From positions 1,111-65,110 of the forward strand of contig JAFUGL010000023.1 of the NCBI GenBank assembly GCA_017469405.1: a DNA stretch of 64,000 nt. The letters are read 5' to 3'. The notes under the pieces were generated by a model that searched no databases, was not told the origin of the DNA, and saw only the letters and a program-made list of their open reading frames with translations. The translations under genes were made by a program, and so were the position numbers. This DNA is from Lachnospiraceae bacterium. GTDB lineage: Bacteria; Bacillota; Clostridia; Lachnospirales; Lachnospiraceae. Positions 34,200 through 54,559 of the stretch are shown piece by piece; position 1 is the first letter of the stretch; every line of letters begins with the position of its first letter.

Positions 34200-34440
34200 C
34201 TAAACAACCGCTCTCTCAAAGTAAAATTCATAAATATCATCAATATCCCTATATGCACTATAATAATACATTACTTCATATTTATCCATGATATTTCTCA
34301 TTCAGCTTATTCATTGCAACATACAACGGGATAAGCTGAGCTCCTTCTTTGACTTCTTTTTCAGCCTCAAATATTGCCTGATCAGTTTTGTTTATCTGAG
34401 AAAACTTCTCATAAAACTTTGCACACCCATAAAATCTCAT
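34200..34440 (-). pseudogene. Remnant duplicate of the Phd 3' half and RelE 5' end (two short open frames: 34282-34440 and 34200-34289)
   Basis: 34229-34424 aligns without gaps to 36759-36954. Translations: ...FYEKFSQINKTDQAIFEAEKEVKEGAQ... and MDKYEVMYYYSAYRDIDDIYE... Confidence 0.88.
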
Positions 34441-36516: not shown

Positions 36517-36819
36517 TTATATATTTCTACCTTGATATTGTACAGTGACTACATACACAATCTTCTTCTCCCTATCTATCTTAAATATGGCAAGATAGTT
36601 ATCAATAAGAATCTGTTTATATCCTTTTTCTGCATATCTTCCAACCAACCTGTCTTGATGAGATTCAGGAAATATATCTAATGACCGAATAGCAGCCCAT
36701 ATTCTATCTGTCTGTCCTTTGGCATTTTCCGGTGCATTTTTTTCCAAAGCAATATAGGCATAAATATCATCAATATCTCTATATGCCCTTGGATATAACA
36801 TTACTTCATATTTATCCAT
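36517..36819 (-). CDS. RelE/ParE family toxin
   Basis: RAYRDIDDIY, SLDIFPE, YKQILIDNYLAIF; overlaps the antitoxin stop. Confidence 0.9.
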   Translation of the reverse strand: MDKYEVMLYPRAYRDIDDIYAYIALEKNAPENAKGQTDRIWAAIRSLDIFPESHQDRLVGRYAEKGYKQILIDNYLAIFKIDREKKIVYVVTVQYQGRNI

Positions 36820-37075
36820 AGTATTTCTCGTTCAGCCTGTTCATAGCAACATCTAACGGTATAGGCTGAGCCCCTTCTTCAACTTCTTTTTCAGCTTCAT
36901 ATATAGCCTGATCAATTTTGTTTATCTGAGCAAACTTCTCATACAACTCCGCACTCATAACTACCAAATCACTGTAACCGTTCTTTGTAATAAAAATAGG
37001 TTCCTGCTTCTTGTGTGCTAATTCAGATATATCACTTGTGTTTCTTAAATCTCTAATCGGCATAATTGTTGGCAT
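36812..37075 (-). CDS. Phd/YefM family antitoxin
   Basis: IMPIRDLRN, EPIFITKNG, VVMSAELYE. Start MPTIMP after GGAGGTG. Confidence 0.92.
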   Translation of the reverse strand: MPTIMPIRDLRNTSDISELAHKKQEPIFITKNGYSDLVVMSAELYEKFAQINKIDQAIYEAEKEVEEGAQPIPLDVAMNRLNEKYYG

Positions 37076-41998: not shown

Positions 41999-44074
41999 TC
42001 ATAAATCCTCCAGATGTTCTTCCATATTTTTGTATGCGTAATTCAAAATAGCCTCTGTCTCATCGTCAATTTTTTTAGCGTGAGCATCTGTTCTATTTTC
42101 ATTAATTATTTCCATGTACATATTAAATTTAGTCTTATCTGGCAAAAAACTTTCATAACTCCCATAATCTTTATTTATAATATCTTTCAATTGGATAAAA
42201 TATAGTTCTTGAATTGCATCATCCAATCCATGTTGTTTATTTATTCTTTTTTCTTGCCCTTTATCTTGTGTTGTTTTAGCAGCCACTTCTGCCAGTTTTT
42301 CCTTAGCTTTTTTCCCATATTTACTAAAATAAACTTTTCCAATTAAATTACGTAATTTTAATTCAATATTATTTCTTCTAACTGTATTCTTTGCCCACTT
42401 ATCATCCAATGTCAACGCCGGAATTTCATTTTTATATTTTTCCTTTAAGTGCCTTTCTATCGATTTAATATTAAAACAATAATCCTCTTTATCCCTTTTA
42501 ATCAAACAATAACCAATAAGATGCACAATTATATTATTATCTTCACCAACTTTTTTCCTAAAAGACTGTTCTCCCTCTAAAGCAAATTTCTTTAATAATT
42601 CAAATTCATCAGTATACTGATTTTCTAAAACATTCAAAATTTGGTTAATAATTGAACTAATATCTATTTCTAAATCTTTACGTTGTTTATCATATTTATA
42701 TTTATTTACATTTATAGGTCTCTCCCCTGTATCGTCTAAACTACTGATAATTAAACTACATACTTGTCTTGTAAGAAATGGATGACCGCCATAATCATCT
42801 ATTAATCTAGAATACACTTCTTCGTCAAATTCAACACCTAAATATCCTCCTATTGTAGAAACCATTTCCTTTACATCAGTATATTCAAATAACGGAATAT
42901 AATCAGGTGTCATAATTCCAAATATAGGATTATCATTGCCTTTTATGCTCGATAATTCAATAACATGCGGATTAACACCACATATAATAAACGAAAGAAT
43001 CTCATTATTTTTTTGAGTTATGGATCTAATAGTTTGCCAAAAATTCAACGAATCAGTCCCTGTTTTCCAATGTTTTGTAGGCGAAGTATCATATCCTATA
43101 GACTCAATCTCATCAAACATTAAAAGTATTCTTGTTTTTCCCAATCCTTCATAAATTTCTTTTATGTTATTTTCAAAACTTTTCTTAGCATATTCTTCAG
43201 AATATCTATCTTGAGAATCTTTGAAGTCGTTAATAATAATTTTAAAATCTTTTTCCAGATGCCTACCATAATAATTATCGTCGTCCCTAAACTGAATCAC
43301 CATCTCTTTTATTATTGTTTCTAATACTCTGTACCAGCGCATATTATGATATTGGCTACAGTCGAAATAAATTACCGCGCCATTATCACTTTCAACCCTA
43401 TGCTTTAATAAGTTCAACGTTGATGTTTTCCCAATTCTTCTTAATCCAAACAATCCACTTTGTTCACCTTGCTTATACTTACCAAAAAATGTATGTATTA
43501 AGTTCTGTCTGTCCTTTCCAAAGAAAAATGCATCATCATTTAATGGCGATGCTACACTAAATAAATCTCTTTCATACATAAATACTCGCATCCTATTTTG
43601 AAGAAATTCTGAATTAAATTTCTCATTAAATTCATCGTACGAAAAAGGAATAAAAATCCTGGATTCAGGATGGTCATTTCTATCTCTTAACATTGTATCC
43701 ACAATATCGTCACAATCATCAATTAAAAAAACCGTTATCCTGTCTAAACGATTACGATACTCTCCTGAAATTAGTATATAATCAACTAAATCTTTTGTTC
43801 TGCTCGCAAAGTAGGTCATTGTATTATTTCCACATACAATTAGTACTTCATTATTTAGACCATATAATTGTCTAAGTTTTTTTACAGGTTTAAAAAAGCA
43901 AATACTATATGCAGAACTCTTAAATCTTTGTTCTTTTGAAAATGATATCAATCCAAATTGCGACATACACTCAACTGCATTTCGTATTTTTTCATTTCCA
44001 TTAATCATAATTTTTTTGCCATTAACAGATGCTAATCCAATTTTGTCATCTTTTGACACAAGTTCGTATCTCAT
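41999..44074 (-). CDS. STAND/AAA-type ATPase with C-terminal Swt1/HEPN-like domain
   Basis: Walker A GLRRIGKTS, Walker B LLMFDEIE, GGHPFLTRQ, C-terminal IELKLRNLI...LYFIQLKDII...NENRTDAH. Confidence 0.65.
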   Translation of the reverse strand: MRYELVSKDDKIGLASVNGKKIMINGNEKIRNAVECMSQFGLISFSKEQRFKSSAYSICFFKPVKKLRQLYGLNNEVLIVCGNNTMTYFASRTKDLVDYILISGEYRNRLDRITVFLIDDCDDIVDTMLRDRNDHPESRIFIPFSYDEFNEKFNSEFLQNRMRVFMYERDLFSVASPLNDDAFFFGKDRQNLIHTFFGKYKQGEQSGLFGLRRIGKTSTLNLLKHRVESDNGAVIYFDCSQYHNMRWYRVLETIIKEMVIQFRDDDNYYGRHLEKDFKIIINDFKDSQDRYSEEYAKKSFENNIKEIYEGLGKTRILLMFDEIESIGYDTSPTKHWKTGTDSLNFWQTIRSITQKNNEILSFIICGVNPHVIELSSIKGNDNPIFGIMTPDYIPLFEYTDVKEMVSTIGGYLGVEFDEEVYSRLIDDYGGHPFLTRQVCSLIISSLDDTGERPINVNKYKYDKQRKDLEIDISSIINQILNVLENQYTDEFELLKKFALEGEQSFRKKVGEDNNIIVHLIGYCLIKRDKEDYCFNIKSIERHLKEKYKNEIPALTLDDKWAKNTVRRNNIELKLRNLIGKVYFSKYGKKAKEKLAEVAAKTTQDKGQEKRINKQHGLDDAIQELYFIQLKDIINKDYGSYESFLPDKTKFNMYMEIINENRTDAHAKKIDDETEAILNYAYKNMEEHLEDL

Positions 44075-44338
44075 TTTCGTTCTCCTCCAATATTTAGCTT
44101 GAATTATTTACTTAATAGAAACTTCCCCACAATCGAGTAATGAACTATAAATAAATCATGCAACAATACAATTTCTTATATTATTCCGTCAGTATTTATT
44201 AGTTTCAATACTTACTGCATTTTAAATACCTGATTTTTTCTTGGTGGTAATGTGTTTATAATATCCATTTATTATAATGTTATTATCTTTATACTCTGCT
44301 ACATACAATACTTTTATAGCACGCAAAAAATCTTATTA

Positions 44339-45016
44339 TCAAAAATAAATTGCTATATGCAACCGATCATTCTGACCACCCAAAAACAAACAATCCATAT
44401 CAACATTTCCTTTTCCAATTGTGTTTAAATCCAATTGGCACGGAAATATCTTTCTATAGTTATATACCAAATCTCTTGTTAAAATCTCATTTAAATTTGT
44501 TTTATTATTCATCAAAAATGGAAAATACACTAATCTTTCCTTATTAACCGGATTACGAACACCTCTTCCCATCCCAAGCTGCATTACTTGCCCGAAATAA
44601 TCTAAACAATTGCACCATATTAATACAAATGCTCTTTTTTTCTTGTTACCATTAATCAACTCACCCTCTAACCATTGAAAATCCTTTTCAAATTCAACCC
44701 ACGCTTTACTTGCTGTTTGTGTCTTAAACGCAGAATTCCAATTTTTTAGATATTTTATCTCAATAATAAAATCTTTAGATGGAATAAAAATATCATGATG
44801 AGATTGATTGTTCTTATTATCTTGTACCTCATAATATGCCAAATCTTTAAAATACTCACCAATTTTATATACCCAGTCTCTTTCTACATATCGCTTGTTA
44901 GCCTCCGCTTTAAAATCCTCTAACGAAAAATGCTCATAACGTACATTAACTTGATCAATTATCAAAGAACATATTAAATCCAAATATTCATTAATCGGTT
45001 TTTCATTTCTTTCCAA
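44339..45016 (-). CDS. Putative PD-(D/E)xK nuclease-fold protein
   Basis: HHDIFIPSKDFIIEIKY motif; AT-rich. Confidence 0.5.
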   Translation of the reverse strand: MERNEKPINEYLDLICSLIIDQVNVRYEHFSLEDFKAEANKRYVERDWVYKIGEYFKDLAYYEVQDNKNNQSHHDIFIPSKDFIIEIKYLKNWNSAFKTQTASKAWVEFEKDFQWLEGELINGNKKKRAFVLIWCNCLDYFGQVMQLGMGRGVRNPVNKERLVYFPFLMNNKTNLNEILTRDLVYNYRKIFPCQLDLNTIGKGNVDMDCLFLGGQNDRLHIAIYF

Positions 45017-45328
45017 TTATGCACCTCCAACATACCGTATAATGTAAATATGTTTGATTGACCCTATCAGCAATTTATATACTTATATTCTTCTGTTTTA
45101 TAGTTTAATCTATGAAACATATTTCATCATATAATATAACACAAAATAATAATAACATAAAGTTAAATATAATATATTAAACTAGGTATTTTTTATTAAA
45201 TTTTGAATTTACAATCCACATCATTTCAGATTACATCATTAAAAAATCAACACATTAAATAACAATGTCCTCATCATATATATTTATCTAACAAAGAATG
45301 ATAATTTATCTTAATGTTATTTCAAATA

Positions 45329-45430
45329 TTAATTCATTATCTTCATTGTCGGGAAAAGAAGGACATCCCTAATCGCCGAACTATCTGTCAACAACATACA
45401 CGATCTATCAATTCCATACCCTATATCACC
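45329..45430 (-). pseudogene. Diverged duplicate of the lysS 3' end (att-like scar)
   Basis: Translates [33 protein letters not shown] vs lys[34 protein letters not shown]. Confidence 0.92.
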
Positions 45431-45539
45431 CTATTCAATCATAGTAATCATATCTATATGTAACAAAAAGCACCTGCAAAAAAACAAGTGCTTTTCATTT
45501 CTATTTACAGAAAGTATTTTCCTCAAAACACAGAAAGGT

Positions 45540-46439
45540 TCACATCCACATTTTGTTCTTATAACTCCATCGTTTATCGAAATATTCTTTTCTAAGTATG
45601 TTCAGATAGATTGGTTCAAGAAATACCACCAGCCTGTCCAGCATATCATCAAACAGCAAACCTGTTTCCTTCGCCGGATCAAACGCATTCCACAGGGTAT
45701 TCAATGCAGTATTGTTCTTAAAATCCGCAATTTCCTCAAAAACATCAGCCGATAATTTTCTGTTACGATGAGTCAATGTACTTTTAACCGCTTCTATAAG
45801 AACCATTCCTTCAAAATCAAATATCCCTGACAGATAATAAATGTCATAGAAATCCTTCATCCTGCTTGTTCCGGCCATTCTCTGAAGAATTGCATCAAAT
45901 TTTTCTGCAATAGTACTTTCCAACGAATAAGTGTATACCTCCGGAGAGGTAAAATCGGGTAATCTTGTAACAATTGACCTTTTAATCGGATTAGGTACGA
46001 TTACATCATCAATACCGATATCAATTAAAAACGGAATCCTCACCTTTCCTATACGTCCAATAAAATTAATTTTTACACCGGGATATTTTTTATCTAACGA
46101 TATATTCTCTGTTCCCAAAACCTCCAATGTTATAAAATCATTTCCCGTACTGACATTGCAGATTTCTCTCATTATCTGCTCTATGTTGTCCGGGTTTCCT
46201 TGCAGATTCCTTATCAAGAAATCAATATCTCTTGTCGGTCTTGAATCAAACTCCGTAAGTGTATATATAAACATTCCACCCTTCAAAATCAGGTTATTAT
46301 CATATTTGGAAAGGGATAATTTTCTCAAAAATTCTTCCTGTGCAAAGAGCTGAAGTACCATCTGAAACGGAATCCCCTCTTCTTTTGACTGATTTTTCAA
46401 TCTTGTCAGCACTGATGCCTCCATATTCTTTATAGCCAT
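45540..46439 (-). CDS. AbiEii nucleotidyltransferase toxin (type IV TA)
   Basis: LILKGG, RPTRDIDF, STIAEKF, SRMKDFYDI. Confidence 0.92.
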   Translation of the reverse strand: MAIKNMEASVLTRLKNQSKEEGIPFQMVLQLFAQEEFLRKLSLSKYDNNLILKGGMFIYTLTEFDSRPTRDIDFLIRNLQGNPDNIEQIMREICNVSTGNDFITLEVLGTENISLDKKYPGVKINFIGRIGKVRIPFLIDIGIDDVIVPNPIKRSIVTRLPDFTSPEVYTYSLESTIAEKFDAILQRMAGTSRMKDFYDIYYLSGIFDFEGMVLIEAVKSTLTHRNRKLSADVFEEIADFKNNTALNTLWNAFDPAKETGLLFDDMLDRLVVFLEPIYLNILRKEYFDKRWSYKNKMWM

Positions 46440-47023
46440 ACTCCCAGCACCTCCCTTACCTTCTTTTCCACATGAAGTAGCTTGGCATACTTCATTAGTC
46501 TTGCCGTTGCCTTATTCGGATCTTGGACATATCGTTGGATAGCTACATTGAAAACTTCTCCGTCAACTTTGTTCCTATGCAGAAGCAGATCACAAATTGT
46601 TCTTTCCCTATCATATATCTTGATAGGTTTCCCATCAATTTCAGTTTCTTCTATCCCAACCCGGTATCGATCATTCCGAATAAAGTGTGGCTTCACAATA
46701 GGATAATCTATATAGAATCTTGTTCTTGTACTCTTATTATCCACTGCCAGATGCCACGCTGCCGGAGTCCTGTCTGTGTAACCATAGTAATCCAATGCAC
46801 TTTCCATACAGATTACACCATCCGGAAATAGTGTAGTAATGATAGGAATGTCCGAAAAGGAATCTTCTCCTGAGTACTGATAATAGCCTCGTCTAATCTG
46901 CTCAATCTCACCATCTTCAAGCAATTGCTGAATTTTTTTATAATAAATGCCTTCCTCTTTAAGTTCAGAAGTTCTCATCAGACCACCATACATATCAAAA
47001 ATTTTTTTAATATTTTCATTCAT
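46430..47023 (-). CDS. AbiEi antitoxin / transcriptional regulator (type IV TA)
   Basis: IEQIRRGYY, ICMESALDYYG, IYDRERTICD; overlaps AbiEii. Start at MNENIK. Confidence 0.92.
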   Translation of the reverse strand: MNENIKKIFDMYGGLMRTSELKEEGIYYKKIQQLLEDGEIEQIRRGYYQYSGEDSFSDIPIITTLFPDGVICMESALDYYGYTDRTPAAWHLAVDNKSTRTRFYIDYPIVKPHFIRNDRYRVGIEETEIDGKPIKIYDRERTICDLLLHRNKVDGEVFNVAIQRYVQDPNKATARLMKYAKLLHVEKKVREVLGVWL

Positions 47024-47254
47024 AATACAATCCCTCTTTTTTATCATAATATACAATTTAATTATAGTTTTTGTATAGTTTGATAAATTAAGTATATCTG
47101 TTGTTTCGAAAAAAGTCAAGATAAACAGTCAACAGAGATAATAATTTCTGTTGGCAATTTTTTATAAAAATTGTTATATTTTTTAATTCTAAAAAAAGAC
47201 ACTTCTTAAATACTTAAGAAGTGTCCCATAATCATTTCATAATATTTCAATTTC

Positions 47255-48874
47255 CTAATTCAAACTCTTCATCGTCGGGAAGAGCAAAACATCTCTTATA
47301 GCTGGCGAATCCGTCATCAACATACACAACCTGTCAATTCCATAACCGATACCACCCGTAGGAGGCATACCGATTTCAAGCGCATTTAAGAAGTCCTCGT
47401 CGGTGTGGTTGGCTTCCTCGTCGCCTGCGTCAGCGAGCTTATCCTGCTCGGCAAAACGCTCTCTCTGGTCGATTGGATCATTAAGCTCTGAGTATGCGTT
47501 ACACATCTCCCATCCGTTCATGAACATTTCAAAACGCTCCACGTATTCCGGATTCTCAGGCTTCTTCTTGGTAAGAGGTGAGATTTCGATTGGGTGATCC
47601 ATTACAAATGTAGGCTGGATAAGGTGCTCCTCAACATACTCCTCGAAGAAGAGGTTAAGTATATCGCCCTTCTTGTGTCTGTCCTCATACTCGACATGCT
47701 TTTCGTCTGCAATCTTTCTTGCATCCTCAAGTGTCTTTATCTCATTCCAGTCAACGCCTGCGTACTTCTTAACAGCGTCAATCATGGTTATTCTCTCAAA
47801 CGGCTTGCCCAGATCCATCTCAACGCCCTGATAGGTGATAGTGGTTGTACCAAGCACTTCTTGAGCGATATATCGATACATTTCCTCGGTCAGATCCATC
47901 ATGCCGTTGTAGTCGGTATATGCCTGATAAAGTTCCATAAGTGTGAACTCAGGATTGTGTCTTGTATCAAGTCCCTCATTTCTGAATACTCGACCTATCT
48001 CGTACACTCTTTCAAGTCCGCCGACGATAAGTCTCTTTAAGTATAACTCAAGTGAGATACGAAGCTTAAGGTCCTCGCCAAGTGCGTTGAAATGTGTCTC
48101 AAACGGTCTTGCTGCGGCACCACCCGCATTTGACACGAGCATCGGAGTTTCAACCTCCATGAAGTCCTTGCCTGCAAGGAACTTTCTTATCGCTGCGATT
48201 ATCTTGGAACGCTTGATAAATGTATCCTTAACATCCGCATTCATGATAAGGTCGGTATATCTTTGTCTGTATCTCATATCTGTGTTGGTGAGTCCGTGAT
48301 ATTTCTCAGGAAGTATCTGAAGTGACTTGGTAAGAAGTGTAACCTCATTTACATGAATTGAAATCTCACCTGTCATAGTTCTAAATACATAGCCCTTTAT
48401 ACCAACGATATCACCCACATCGTATTTCTTATAATCTGCGTAGTTTTCCTCGCCGATATTGTCTCTTGCAACATATATCTGGATGTTGCCGGATTTATCC
48501 TGTACATTTGAAAATGAAGCCTTTCCCATGATACGCTTGCTCATAAGACGACCTGCTATGCTTACCTCGATAGGTGAAGCATCCATGATGGCGCGGCGCT
48601 CCTCATAATCCTTCTTTCTAAGCGGTCTTGCCTCCTCCTCAGGAAGTCCTGTTACATCCACAGGAGTTCTGCCGGAAAGCAGCTCGCTCTCTAACTTTTC
48701 ATATAAAGCTACACAGTCGGCAGTATGATGAGTCACATCATACTTGGTTATTACAAATGGATCCTTTCCATTTGCCTGGAGCTCTGCAAGCTTTTCTCTT
48801 CTTACCTTAAGAAGCTGGTTTATGTCCTGCTCCTTAGGCTGTTCATTATTGTTCTTGTTTTGGTTTTCTGCCAT
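47255..48874 (-). CDS. lysS: Lysine--tRNA ligase (class II)
   Basis: [37 protein letters not shown]. Confidence 0.98.
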
Positions 48875-51099: not shown

Positions 51100-51164
51100 A
51101 CTCTACCTTCTCCCATATACATTTCCTTTATTATTCATGTAAAGTCATTTCGATTCAATTATAC

Positions 51165-52616
51165 TTATATATTAACTATCTGATTTAAATCGTACAGCAA
51201 TAACCTGCTATCATTTTTTGCCTCTTCAATAATCTTTTTATCAAAGCCCGACTTGGAAAATAACACATAGTAAAAATCAGCTGTTTCCTTAAGGCTCATA
51301 AGCTTTGCCAATGTATCAAGATACTCAGAATAATTAAACTTTGTTTTCTTATACTTACATTCTCCAACGAGATATTCCTTTGCTTCTTTTCCTATTCCAA
51401 GCAAATCTATCTCTGTTTCCGATTCTCTAAAGCCGCTTGACGAACCACTGTCGCGAACAGTTGTTTTTCCCATCCATCTGCCAAGCTGAAGGTACCTGAA
51501 AGGCAATGCATTTTTCTTTTGAAGATTTTTTACAAACTCCTTGCATACATCCTCAAAAACATGTGATGCAAATTCATCAAGTGCAGGAGCAATCATATAA
51601 TCGTATACACCCTCAACATCTCCATCCTCAAGCTGAGAAATATTAACAAATCCAAATGTATACCAGAATCTGAAAAAGTTATCCGTCAAGCTATATGTTC
51701 CTCTGTTTGAATTCGCTTTTTCCTTATCTTTAGAGCCAACCGAAAATTCACGCATTACGATACCAAGTTCTATCAGATTTTTTAAATAGACACTGGTTTT
51801 TGATGTGTCCCCTACAAGAGATTTCTGACTTATATCATTAAGCTTTGTACTCCCAAGAGCGACCGCCTCGATAATAGCATTATAAATCGGCGTCTCCCGA
51901 AGTTCCTGATGAAGTAAGAAATCAACCTCACTGTACAATACCGAACCTTTAGACAAAATGTTTCTCTTTATATTATCAGCTACAGATATTTCAGGATTAA
52001 ACTGGCAAAGATAATGTGGTATACCACCAAGTATTGCATATGCCAATATCTTATCCTCATCAGAATAATTCGGAAAAAACCTGATAGCATCATAAAAGCC
52101 CATTTCAGTCATTTTATATATGCCGGTAGCTCTTCCATATAGTGGATTTTTCTCTGCAAGCAAGTCCTTTTCAATAAAACTCATCGCACTTCCACACAGC
52201 ACAATCATAACATTCTCATCTTTAAGCTCCGTATCCCAGAGATTTTGCAATATAGAAGGTATGCTTCTGTTACCTTTACACAAATAAGGAAACTCATCGA
52301 TTATAACTAATTTCTTTTTTTTGCCAAAAGGTAAATCCTTTAAAGAGCGAAAAGCTGTCTCCCAATCCGGAAAATCTGATATATATTTTTTAGCCGGAAT
52401 ATCTTCCTTAAATATCTGATTTGAAAACTTAGCAAGCTGTATTTTATCCGTACTTTGAGTACATGAATAAAAAATGTGTGGCTTTCCTTTACAAAATTCT
52501 CTTAAAGTTTCTGTTTTCCCAACACGACGCCTGCCATACAAAACAACAAGTTGTCCTTTTTTTTCACTATATTTATCATTAAGAAAAGATAGCTCTGATT
52601 CTCTTCCTATAAACAT
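51165..52616 (-). CDS. Archaeal-type ATPase with C-terminal DUF234 / PD-(D/E)xK domain
   Basis: MFIGRESEL, YGRRRVGKT, IIDEFPY, DNFFRFW, EIDL...VGECKY. Confidence 0.88.
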   Translation of the reverse strand: MFIGRESELSFLNDKYSEKKGQLVVLYGRRRVGKTETLREFCKGKPHIFYSCTQSTDKIQLAKFSNQIFKEDIPAKKYISDFPDWETAFRSLKDLPFGKKKKLVIIDEFPYLCKGNRSIPSILQNLWDTELKDENVMIVLCGSAMSFIEKDLLAEKNPLYGRATGIYKMTEMGFYDAIRFFPNYSDEDKILAYAILGGIPHYLCQFNPEISVADNIKRNILSKGSVLYSEVDFLLHQELRETPIYNAIIEAVALGSTKLNDISQKSLVGDTSKTSVYLKNLIELGIVMREFSVGSKDKEKANSNRGTYSLTDNFFRFWYTFGFVNISQLEDGDVEGVYDYMIAPALDEFASHVFEDVCKEFVKNLQKKNALPFRYLQLGRWMGKTTVRDSGSSSGFRESETEIDLLGIGKEAKEYLVGECKYKKTKFNYSEYLDTLAKLMSLKETADFYYVLFSKSGFDKKIIEEAKNDSRLLLYDLNQIVNI

Positions 52617-52637
52617 ATAAGTGCCTCCTATTTATTC

Positions 52638-52714
52638 AAATCGTAATTTACTAAATCGTGATTTGCTAAATCCTGATTTGAATAAATTATACATAATATT
52701 TACAGCTTTTTCAA
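52638..52714 (-). promoter_or_regulatory. Promoter plus three AAATC-NN-GATTT-type boxes at 15-bp period
   Basis: TTGAAA-17-TATAAT (52709-52714 / 52686-52691); boxes at 52638, 52653 and 52668 between the promoter and RBS. Confidence 0.55.
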
Positions 52715-52756
52715 GAGCTATTTGAAAAACGCCAATGTTTTTCATAATACTTTAAT

Positions 52757-53410
52757 TTACCTTCCCACAAGTGCCTTCGATACTTCAATAACGCCCTTAT
52801 GCTTTAGCTCTCTCGGTTCAAACTTTATAAGATAATACACAAGCTGCATCACAAGTCCCGCTCCAAATGTACTTATCAGAGTTCCTATACCTACCGAGCC
52901 TCCAAGCAGATACCCTGCCAGCAAAACCACAGCCCAAAGCATTACCTCAACTATGCCTATCGGGACCCTTGACATTCTCTTTCCGAGTCCTACCAAAAGC
53001 GCATCTCTCGGACCACAGCACTGCTCCGCACTCATGTATATCCACATTCCGATTGCCATAAACACAAATCCGACAAGCATTATAACAATTCCCAACCAGA
53101 GATTATTATTTTCAGGAAACGGATTGAGACTGTTATACATCTGCACAAAATTACCTGTAAGGAGTGCATCTATGATTGTTCCGTAGCCTATCTTTTCCTT
53201 GAGCAAAACATCTATCAAAAGAATAATCACTGCCATAATCGTCATGGAAATTCCATAATTAAACGGTGTATGCTTCGCCATACCCATCCCCAGGCAGTCC
53301 CATGGTGCAAGTCCGATATTGGCATATATCGTCATATGGACTCCCAATGCGAAAACCAGCAATCCTAACACAATTCTTATCCATTCCAAAAAAAGTCTTT
53401 TACGGGTCAT
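52757..53410 (-). CDS. YczE/YyaS/YitT family membrane protein
   Basis: ANIGLAPWD, EKIGYGTII, GPRDALLVG, VGIGTLI. Confidence 0.88.
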   Translation of the reverse strand: MTRKRLFLEWIRIVLGLLVFALGVHMTIYANIGLAPWDCLGMGMAKHTPFNYGISMTIMAVIILLIDVLLKEKIGYGTIIDALLTGNFVQMYNSLNPFPENNNLWLGIVIMLVGFVFMAIGMWIYMSAEQCCGPRDALLVGLGKRMSRVPIGIVEVMLWAVVLLAGYLLGGSVGIGTLISTFGAGLVMQLVYYLIKFEPRELKHKGVIEVSKALVGR

Positions 53411-54485
53411 TTTTCTGTTTTCTCCCTAACCGCAATCTTTTTGATTAATTTCAGAACATATTTTGTCAATAGCTTAACCAAGAATGCAACAATTATTATA
53501 ACTATAAACTGGTATAAAAACATTAGCAAAATCATATATTTGTTTACATACCATTTTGAAAGCCATGAACCCATATCAAGAATTATGAAATGATGTACCA
53601 GCAATACTTCATAAGAAACACTACTCAAAAAATCAAGTATTCTTAATTTGTATTTTTTCAACAATTCTTCAAAAAACGAACATGATACAAAAAAGGCAAC
53701 TGAAGCCATCGTAATTTTCAACGCCACATTGATATTAAGCGCACTTTTACTGACAATAAAATATACCAGAACAGGAAATGAAACATACATACATTTAGAA
53801 GGAAATCTCTTAAAATATCTTCCAAAATACATTCCCAATATAAATTCGCAGCCCTTGATTATCAAATTCTCCCAAAGCGGCACCTTAAAACTTATGCCAC
53901 TATATGCGGTAATTACATAAACGCACGCTGAAACGACAAAAAATATCTTAGGATATTTATCCATAAAAAATTTAAATACCGGAAACAGTACATACAAGAT
54001 AATTATCGCGCCTAGAAACCATTCGCCTATTGCCTTATAAAATGTAGGAACTTTGTGTATCGCGAGCCAACCGTCAATACCAAGAAATGAATAAATAAAT
54101 CTCCATCTTGGAATGTCAGGAAGTCTATGCCTTTTAATTTGATCCAAAGATACACATATAAAAGAATATTAACTATATAAAACGAAGGCATCAGTCTTAT
54201 AAATCTTTTCTTGTAAAAACTTTTCACACTGTATGATTTATCAGCACTTGTAATAAGTCCCGCACCTGAAAGAATAAAAAATACAGAAACAGAAAGGGTT
54301 GCTATATGCATATTTGGATTTTGAAAATAAACAGCAACCTCTCCAAAAGTATAAACGCCACTTGAATATAGGTACACAAGCATATGATAAAGCACAATCA
54401 ACCCAAAGGATATCACCCTTATCAAGTCATAGTATCTATATCTTTCCGTATCTTTAACATTATCTTTCTTTAATAACGAACTCAT
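53407..54485 (-). pseudogene. Acyltransferase family 3 (OafA-like), frameshifted near 54120
   Basis: N-half has DLIRVIS, FFILSG, KRFIRL; C-half has EWFLGAII..YVLFP, SYEVLLVH. The frames join at ...GIDF / PDIPRW with one base missing. Confidence 0.8.
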
Positions 54486-54522
54486 AAAAACCTCTTTATC
54501 ACTGTTAATCATATATGCACGT

Positions 54523-54559
54523 AAAAAGTGTGTCAAAATAAAATTATGACACACTTTTT
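54523..54559. repeat. REP-like hairpin / terminator after purH
   Basis: AAAAAGTGTGTCA...TGACACACTTTTT. Confidence 0.65.

Follow-up and report, generated by a model that had tools for sequence, protein, structure and literature searches.

A 1.9-kb abiE islet between two diverged copies of the lysS 3' end in a Lachnospiraceae genome, and a possible route of its insertion

The window analysed here is a 64,000-nt stretch of the genome of a Lachnospiraceae bacterium (GenBank assembly GCA_017469405.1, contig JAFUGL010000023.1, positions 1,111 to 65,110), in which the lysyl-tRNA synthetase (LysRS) gene lysS is followed by an abiEi-abiEii pair and then by a second, displaced copy of the lysS 3' end. 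This islet is a relic resembling a cis-mobilizable element (CIME) at a lysS integration hot spot; events of this kind, and the hot spot itself, are already known. From comparison of sequences, we propose with slightly better than even confidence (about 0.55) that a circle bearing abiE and a lysS end inserted into lysS by a Campbell-type crossover and left the CIME-like islet behind. The C-terminus of LysRS and the terminator of lysS most likely came in with abiE, and the downstream copy is most likely the displaced native lysS end, at least from its position 30 on.

Two lysS ends and a mosaic gene

The initial annotation of this stretch had aligned positions 45329-45430 (copy B) without gaps to the end of lysS at 47255-47356 (copy A), and its figures were reproduced exactly: the copies agree at 77/102 nt and 27/33 aa, and the stop codon is kept in each. 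With blastn the repeat is stretched to 115 nt (45318-45431 vs 47243-47357, E 3e-17), the similarity continuing for 12-13 nt beyond the stop, and a full-length LysS query recovers copy B by tblastn (E 2e-12). The two copies form the largest direct repeat found, with a spacing of 1926, and neither a third lysS end nor any other att-like repeat was detected in the 64-kb window by tblastn, blastn with word size 7 or a repeat search. The same structure is present at 99.9-100% identity in ENA scaffolds and Logan contigs from several samples, making at least six independent assemblies, and is therefore not an assembly artefact; exact-protein look-ups of AbiEii, LysS and a 225-aa protein encoded beyond copy B (p225) returned the identical context in every contig.

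The differences between the copies fall mostly at third codon positions, as had been noticed at the outset (5/4/16 at codon positions 1/2/3 in the ungapped alignment, 5/4/15 with p 0.003 in the codon count). A formal NG86 codon test upheld the synonymous bias, with 14 differences over 20.8 synonymous sites against 10 over 78.2 non-synonymous sites (pS 0.67, pN 0.13, dN/dS 0.08, Fisher p 2.6e-6). Such a bias indicates that the divergence mostly accrued while both copies were working parts of lysS in different lineages, and it is not accounted for by the decay of a duplicate in place. In copy B, two residues that do not vary among 75 relatives are substituted, Gly by Asp in the motif GGIGYG and Leu by Ser.

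Comparison with the four nearest species representatives (L001-L004), whose lysS genes are 87-94% identical to that of the window at the nucleotide level and whose LysS proteins are 98-99% identical, reveals which copy is foreign. Identity to L001, L003 and L004 stays at ~94% along the gene and then drops sharply over the last ~80 nt. The change falls within copy A: in repeat coordinates, positions 1-39 are clade-typical, and positions 40-84 match L001, L004 and L003 at only 33, 34 and 30 of 45 nt, below all 1500 other 45-nt windows of lysS (minimum 34-36, mean 42-43; binomial p ~1e-5). The best match to this tract among 75 lysS ends is that of L027 (41/45). L027, which itself carries a lysS integrase element, is a distantly related Lachnospiraceae; its LysS and the LysS of the window are 82% identical. 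Relative to the sister species the foreign end changes a single residue (Leu to Met), and the foreign tract runs on without a break into the abiE cassette. Over the same positions copy B matches L004 at 41/45, near the gene-wide mean of 42.6, with L004 and L001 ranking first and fourth of the 75 references; its best blastn match is again L004 (90% over 90 nt), and the alignment to L001 goes 19 nt past the stop. Since copy A is native on its left and foreign on its right, whereas copy B is clade-typical in the same stretch, the C-terminus of the working LysRS appears to be imported. The earlier suggestions that one copy came from the lysS of another species and that the LysRS C-terminus may be element-supplied are thus both supported, the closest taxon being a different one for each copy and the foreign copy being the one in use. 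Relatives lacking the island, which on that suggestion should not carry both copies, do not: in each sister species without abiE there is a single lysS end and no second copy.

The DNA between the copies holds only the lysS terminator, the abiE promoter with an inverted repeat, abiEi, abiEii and a second terminator (Table 1); the initial annotation had listed the two genes and one terminator. The terminator now serving lysS has no homologue 3' of lysS in relatives, and no terminator was found within 80 nt after copy B. The abiEii and abiEi genes overlap by 10 nt, abiEi is likewise called as 197 aa in public contigs, and the nearest solved structure to AbiEii is that of AbiGII (9hlo_B, 1e-26). 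The inverted repeat over the promoter is likely the AbiEi operator. With a winged-helix gene and a nucleotidyltransferase gene adjacent in one operon, the islet is, by profile match, a complete and self-contained AbiE type IV toxin-antitoxin or abortive-infection module. It shares the overlapping antitoxin and toxin genes, the inverted repeat over the promoter and the strong profiles with the AbiE prototypes of Lactococcus and Streptococcus agalactiae, but it is chromosomal rather than plasmid-borne.

No recombinase is encoded between the copies. A tblastn search with the L024 integrase described below and Pfam searches of the large open reading frames likewise revealed nothing integrase-like in the window. 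Rfam and tRNA scans of the window gave no match, and nothing close was found in phage and plasmid collections. A transposon-type target-site duplication was considered and rejected, as the copies are 76% identical with a synonymous bias and there are neither terminal inverted repeats nor a transposase.

Table 1. Features of the islet in the window, and abiE relatives bracketed by direct repeats at other loci
Feature	Coordinates	Strand	Basis or description
lysS, class II lysyl-tRNA synthetase, 539 aa, intact	47255..48874	-	Pfam tRNA-synt_2 4e-96 and tRNA_anti-codon OB fold
Repeat copy A (attL-like): terminal 102 nt of lysS with stop, plus 12 nt past the stop	47243..47357	-	blastn, tblastn, repeat search
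Copy A positions 1-39, clade-typical (native) part	47318..47356	-	38/39 nt shared with L001 and with L004
Copy A positions 40-102 plus 12 nt, imported part; codes for the last 20 LysRS residues	47243..47317	-	segment comparison
GTGTATGTTG, 10-nt block common to both copies at the inferred crossover, positions 30-39	47318..47327 (copy A), 45392..45401 (copy B)	-	mosaic switch between positions 29 and 40
TCCCGACGATGAAG, 14-nt core of the lysS-specific integrase family, copy A	47267..47280	-	14/17 element repeats start at the motif
Intrinsic terminator now used by lysS, in imported DNA	47196..47227	-	terminator scan; fold -17 kcal/mol, z -6.1
abiE promoter TTGACT-17-TATACT with an inverted repeat (12-bp stem) lying across it	47091..47155	-	sequence scan
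abiEi, 197 aa, winged-helix antitoxin and autorepressor	46430..47023	-	Pfam AbiEi_4 (PF13338); PADLOC AbiEi 1.9e-82
abiEii, 299 aa, nucleotidyltransferase toxin (DUF1814)	45540..46439	-	Pfam AbiEii (PF08843) 5.5e-42; PADLOC 6.9e-87
abiE terminator hairpin with U tract	45462..45499	-	fold -19.1 kcal/mol, z -5.5
Repeat copy B (attR-like): displaced non-functional lysS 3' fragment	45318..45431	-	blastn, tblastn
TCCCGACAATGAAG, same integrase core, copy B	45341..45354	-	sequence match
Bracketed abiE relative	L087 8953-11089		repeat is the 3' end of a MerR/GyrI-like gene, 146 nt, 96.6%
Bracketed abiE relative	L126 1954-4031		repeat is part of another gene, 95 nt, 76%, decayed
Bracketed abiE relatives	L107 607-2276; L112 9280-10971; L139 9265-10954		repeats are intrinsic terminators, 37-44 nt, 89-100%
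Bracketed abiE relative	L146 9010-11086		repeat is a tRNA 3' half, 86 nt, 96.5%
Bracketed abiE relative	L130 3287-5513		repeat is a 216-nt non-coding stretch
Bracketed abiE relatives	L092 9261-11050; L160 1188-3021		

The lysS 3' end and abiE cassettes in other genomes

The DNA directly after lysS differs among the sister species: L001 has a restriction-modification (R-M) block, L002 and L004 an element with ParB and an actin-like partition protein, and L003 an element with FtsK, Rep_OBD and a helicase; abiE is not present in any of the four. This different cargo after lysS in each sister marks the site as a hot spot. The element in L024 (2298-9405) is 7 kb long, has lysS on one side and a 29-nt repeat of the lysS end on the other, and encodes a Tn916-type tyrosine integrase, a helix-turn-helix repressor and a small-terminase-like gene, given which the element may be a phage satellite. 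Of the relatives of this integrase taken from 80 genomes, about 20 have lysS no more than 10 kb away. Seventeen loci show lysS followed by the integrase, and in 14 of these the repeat has its start precisely at TCCCNACNATGAAG, 28 nt ahead of the stop of lysS. L024 and no fewer than 13 further loci (among L183-L261; examples are L203, L205 and L244) hold elements of 5-11 kb in which a Tn916-type integrase lies next to attR, 13-32 nt are duplicated and ~14 nt of the lysS end are supplied by the element; left of the core these elements show no similarity to lysS. Judged from these sequences, a tyrosine-integrase family specific for the lysS 3' end is widespread in Lachnospiraceae and other Clostridia. 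Elements of the integrative and conjugative type (ICEs) and of the integrative and mobilizable type (IMEs) integrated in the lysS 3' end, with repeats of 13-17 bp, have been described in Streptococcus (Ambroset et al. 2016, PMC4701971). The initial annotation was right to treat lysS 3' ends as integration targets, in streptococci and, through the Tn916-type integrases described here, in Clostridia.

AbiE genes recur near this site. Among 80 other abiE loci, three, from three lineages, have abiE within 4 kb 3' of lysS (p 2e-4), all without repeats. In L201 and L243 abiE lies just beyond the attR of lysS integrase elements, and in L089 abiE and a truncated integrase lie 3' of lysS. In L243 (11397-11760), the lysS-type integrase and attR are also followed by a second copy, in tandem, of the final ~20 nt of lysS with ~110 nt of flank, and then by abiE; this arrangement looks like accretion with an earlier, nearly erased element. 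Two further observations were made at lysS loci. In L045 (10115-11795), a Fic-family gene lies directly after lysS between perfect 59-nt direct repeats, the distal copy being fused to a 22-nt lysS fragment. In some Lachnospiraceae (L045 9676-10113, L089 6940-7386), LysS has a C-terminal extension of ~146 aa that, judged by eye, looks like a tRNA-binding domain of the Trbp111/CsaA type.

For the cassette itself, abiE relatives at 46-85% aa identity were taken from 80 genomes. The DNA that they have in common is just the promoter and the two genes, at 79-85% nucleotide identity from ~47148 onwards. Of 82 testable loci, 10 have the cassette (1.6-1.9 kb) tightly enclosed between direct repeats, 32-216 nt long, of the local upstream sequence (Table 1), as against an adjacent repeat in 1 of 122 random 1.5-kb intervals of the same loci (Fisher p 6e-4). 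No recombinase is found between the repeats of the bracketed loci, and their cassette ends share nothing conserved beyond the promoter and the operator. Bracketing at so many targets points to a property of small toxin-type cassettes and not of lysS alone. Such cassettes are either the survivors of decayed integrative elements from which the addictive module was kept, or movers without a recombinase of their own. It is tempting, if rather doubtful, to regard the abiE pair as a mobile cassette of 1.6-1.9 kb that lacks a recombinase, lands after a gene end, a terminator or a tRNA 3' half and duplicates 32-216 nt of upstream sequence, the lysS case then being one instance of an undescribed general route by which toxin-antitoxin and defence cassettes spread. 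Two ways of moving are possible. The cassette could form a circle through its flanking repeats, carry along a piece of its old target and re-insert at the orthologous site in a new host, or it could hijack resident integrases of different specificities.

How the islet may have formed

We propose that a small circular DNA entered the chromosome by a single crossover inside the last 102 nt of lysS. The circle would have carried abiEi-abiEii with its own promoter and terminator, together with a segment of ~115 nt resembling the lysS 3' end and stemming from another Lachnospiraceae lineage. The crossover would have taken place near the block GTGTATGTTG. As a result, the working lysS would be native up to the crossover and imported beyond it, the imported part comprising the last 20 codons (with the one residue changed), the stop and a new terminator, and the native end would have been pushed 1926 bp downstream to become relic B. 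What remains would be a 1.9-kb islet devoid of a recombinase at the edge of a larger defence island. The proposal implies a circle junction of the form B(1-29)+GTGTATGTTG+A(40-), i.e. ...GATAGATC GTGTATGTTG ATGACGGATTCG..., and an empty site of the form A(1-29)+GTGTATGTTG+B(40-), i.e. ...GACAGGTT GTGTATGTTG TTGACAGATAGTTCGG... The circular intermediate, the crossover position and the enzyme responsible are thus what we infer, next to an observed repeat, codon bias, mosaic and gene content and the lysS integrases seen in relatives. As the longest identical run between A and B is 11 nt, too short for RecA, recombination of the RecA type is unlikely; more plausible candidates are a site-specific recombinase supplied in trans and an illegitimate event mediated by microhomology. 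A hybrid copy A together with a hybrid or native copy B is the topology left when a circle with a lysS-like segment inserts by one crossover.

Several observations weigh against this proposal. All of the mosaic assignments are drawn from segments of 39-45 nt. The left segment of copy B matches the native sequence at 34/39 (5 differences, p 0.05), and its positions 1-29 cannot be assigned to a donor as opposed to a decayed native end; moreover, the last 12 nt of copy A are native-like and those of copy B are not, which makes the mosaic imperfect. The islet repeat starts at -102 and spans 102 + 13 nt, as against a start at -28 and ~28 duplicated nt in the only lysS integrase family found, and the mosaic breakpoint lies ~60 nt upstream of the core of that family. 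The non-coding flanks of the islet are without homology to any element retrieved with the 80 integrase loci and the 80 lysS loci. In contigs of the runs holding the strain (X1-X4), which drop rare variants, only the occupied form was seen, with neither an empty site nor a circle junction. A degenerate pattern covering A, B and their attP-type and attB-type hybrids had 0 matches in metagenome_contigs and 0 in viral_contigs.

In genome_contigs the matches to this pattern were only the lysS ends of L001 and L004 themselves. Apparent joints in runs X5-X13 were discarded, being lysS fragments of other species that match by chance as related lysS ends. Relatives of the 691-aa ATPase encoded downstream of the islet did not lead to an empty site either, the nearest homologue being 57% identical and the homologues lying in unrelated contexts. 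The relatives with an empty lysS site and the lysS-targeting integrase elements carrying this AbiE that the initial annotation had suggested looking for were not found in the retrieved loci. Its description of an integrase-less islet bracketed by repeats holds, and the copies may be the att sites that it took them for.

The comparison with known systems runs along the same lines. CIMEs have been defined (PMC5704250) and exemplified in streptococci next to ICESt1 and ICESt3. The islet is like them in lying at an accretion site, in carrying defence or addiction cargo and in having no integration or transfer genes between its repeats. CIMEs are also related to ICEs or IMEs by descent or kinship; for the islet, whose flanks and abiE genes are unmatched in the retrieved elements, no parent ICE or IME could be identified. 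Its repeats of 115 nt and 76% identity contrast with the short, near-identical att cores of CIMEs. We therefore speak of CIME anatomy, the att status of the copies being unproven. To the lysS ICEs and IMEs of Streptococcus and the elements in L024, L203 and L205, the islet is linked by the same target gene end, by a replacement end that keeps lysS intact and by the core TCCCGACNATGAAG, of which both copies hold the 14 nt. These elements span 5-11 kb, have an integrase by their att site and duplicate only the last 13-32 nt of lysS, unlike the islet, with its 1.9 kb, no integrase, a repeat of 102+13 nt and a breakpoint ~60 nt upstream of the core.

The tycheposon-type islands of Prochlorococcus are cargo satellites that lack an integrase and are bounded by partial tRNA repeats at tyrosine recombinase sites. 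The islet likewise is a cargo-only unit between partial copies of its target gene, but this target is protein-coding, the phylum is another and no specific recombinase is linked to it.

An unlikely but serious alternative dispenses with both circle and recombinase. A linear donor consisting of the lysS 3' part, the terminator and abiE could have been inserted by homology-facilitated illegitimate recombination, with the left join in lysS and the right join made illegitimately 102 nt before the stop, thereby duplicating the recipient segment and leaving copy B wholly native and decaying. The overall closeness of B to the nearest relatives (L004, 90% over 90 nt) agrees with this, as do the failure of its left segment to be significantly non-native and its excess of differences, including those at invariant residues, which suit the decay of a pseudogene. 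The repeat length that misfits the known integrase family and the many unrelated local repeats of 32-216 nt that bracket abiE relatives, with no integrase, also speak for such an event. On the other side, it would require a homeologous anchor of merely ~75-82% identity, it gives no reason for a landing inside an integrase hot spot, and the places where abiE relatives have inserted, for instance a tRNA 3' half and gene ends, resemble classic integrase targets.

It is considerably less probable that relic B arrived with the downstream block (B, p225, AAA ATPase, type IV restriction endonuclease and NUDIX) from a close relative, behind a lysS with an A-type end that already had abiE next to it. 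Such a precursor resembles L091 (Eubacterium xylanophilum), where abiE starts 177 nt after lysS with no repeat; B is clade-typical, and the block at 37.9-45.3 kb is missing from L001, where another block lies between lysS and the shared MBL gene. Yet copy A is native at positions 1-39 and foreign at 40-84, and the foreign tract adjoins abiE, so that the breakpoint in lysS is on the abiE side; nor was any genome found in which lysS is directly followed by p225.

Decay of an L024-type element that crossed over at the core TCCCGACNATGAAG is improbable to a similar degree. Deletions would have left the addictive abiE pair, and the longer similarity of B would stem from an earlier aberrant excision. 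Both copies do contain the core, where they differ by the G/A exchange that also distinguishes attL from attR in L205, and abiE occurs with a truncated integrase after lysS in L089 and beside such integrases in L201 and L243. The difficulty is the mosaic: a crossover at the core predicts that positions 1-76 are native in A and element-derived in B, and because A is foreign at 40-76 the opposite is seen there. No residual homology to L024-type elements was detected in addition. Finally, divergence in place after a local tandem duplication, like an assembly artefact, can be put aside with near certainty given the independent assemblies, the codon test and the mosaic comparison, since a pS of 0.67 is far above the divergence between this genome and its sister species and a synonymous bias would have had to build up although one copy is untranslated.

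Surroundings and implications

The islet forms the lysS-proximal edge of a defence island. From lysS to the MBL, AKR and LigT genes that the sister species share, the content of this island is unlike theirs. Its genes code for p225 and the 691-aa AAA ATPase, for a methyl-directed restriction enzyme of type IV and its NUDIX partner, for Phd/ParE and for an R-M enzyme resembling type IIG. Relic B and the p225 gene are separated by a gap of 310 nt (45017-45328) with 20% G+C and a promoter-like site at 45298-45325. In the adjoining stretch (41999-45016), p225 has no family match and the 691-aa protein matches AAA_22 without a PADLOC match. The latter, which may represent an undescribed defence gene, has over 500 family members of ~690 aa in gut metagenomes; the closest of them is 57% identical, and homologues occur as solo genes in varied contexts. 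Further along, a 196-nt partial copy of the phd/parE junction (34229-34424 and 36759-36954, 86% identical) lies between the type IIG-like R-M gene and tag and looks like what is left of a second toxin-antitoxin cassette. Beyond greA-lysS, on the opposite side, the block at 51134-54551, which is absent from L001 and encodes an ATPase_2/DUF234 protein (PADLOC candidate PDC-S27), a DUF6198 protein and an acyltransferase, forms a second variable islet.

One public contig departs from this layout. In L083 (1-2970, contig k141_473583), a lysS 5' part of 72% nucleotide identity, with MatE upstream instead of greA, is joined at a conserved motif to sequence that is 100% identical to the window from 47518 on for more than 12 kb. 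The contig is a probable assembly chimera, the alternative being a very recent transfer of the whole lysS-linked island.

In this organism, a gut or rumen Lachnospiraceae, part of an essential housekeeping enzyme and its terminator would be encoded by imported DNA at the cost of a single changed residue, Leu to Met. The islet also indicates how small a defence islet can be and still bear the scars of integration, and the loci assembled here extend targeting of the lysS 3' end from streptococci to gut and rumen Lachnospiraceae, with an integrase family that has a defined 14-nt core. The lead most worth following is the recurrent bracketing of abiE cassettes: if a common mechanism lies behind it, this would matter for understanding the movement of toxin-antitoxin and defence genes that lack a recombinase of their own.

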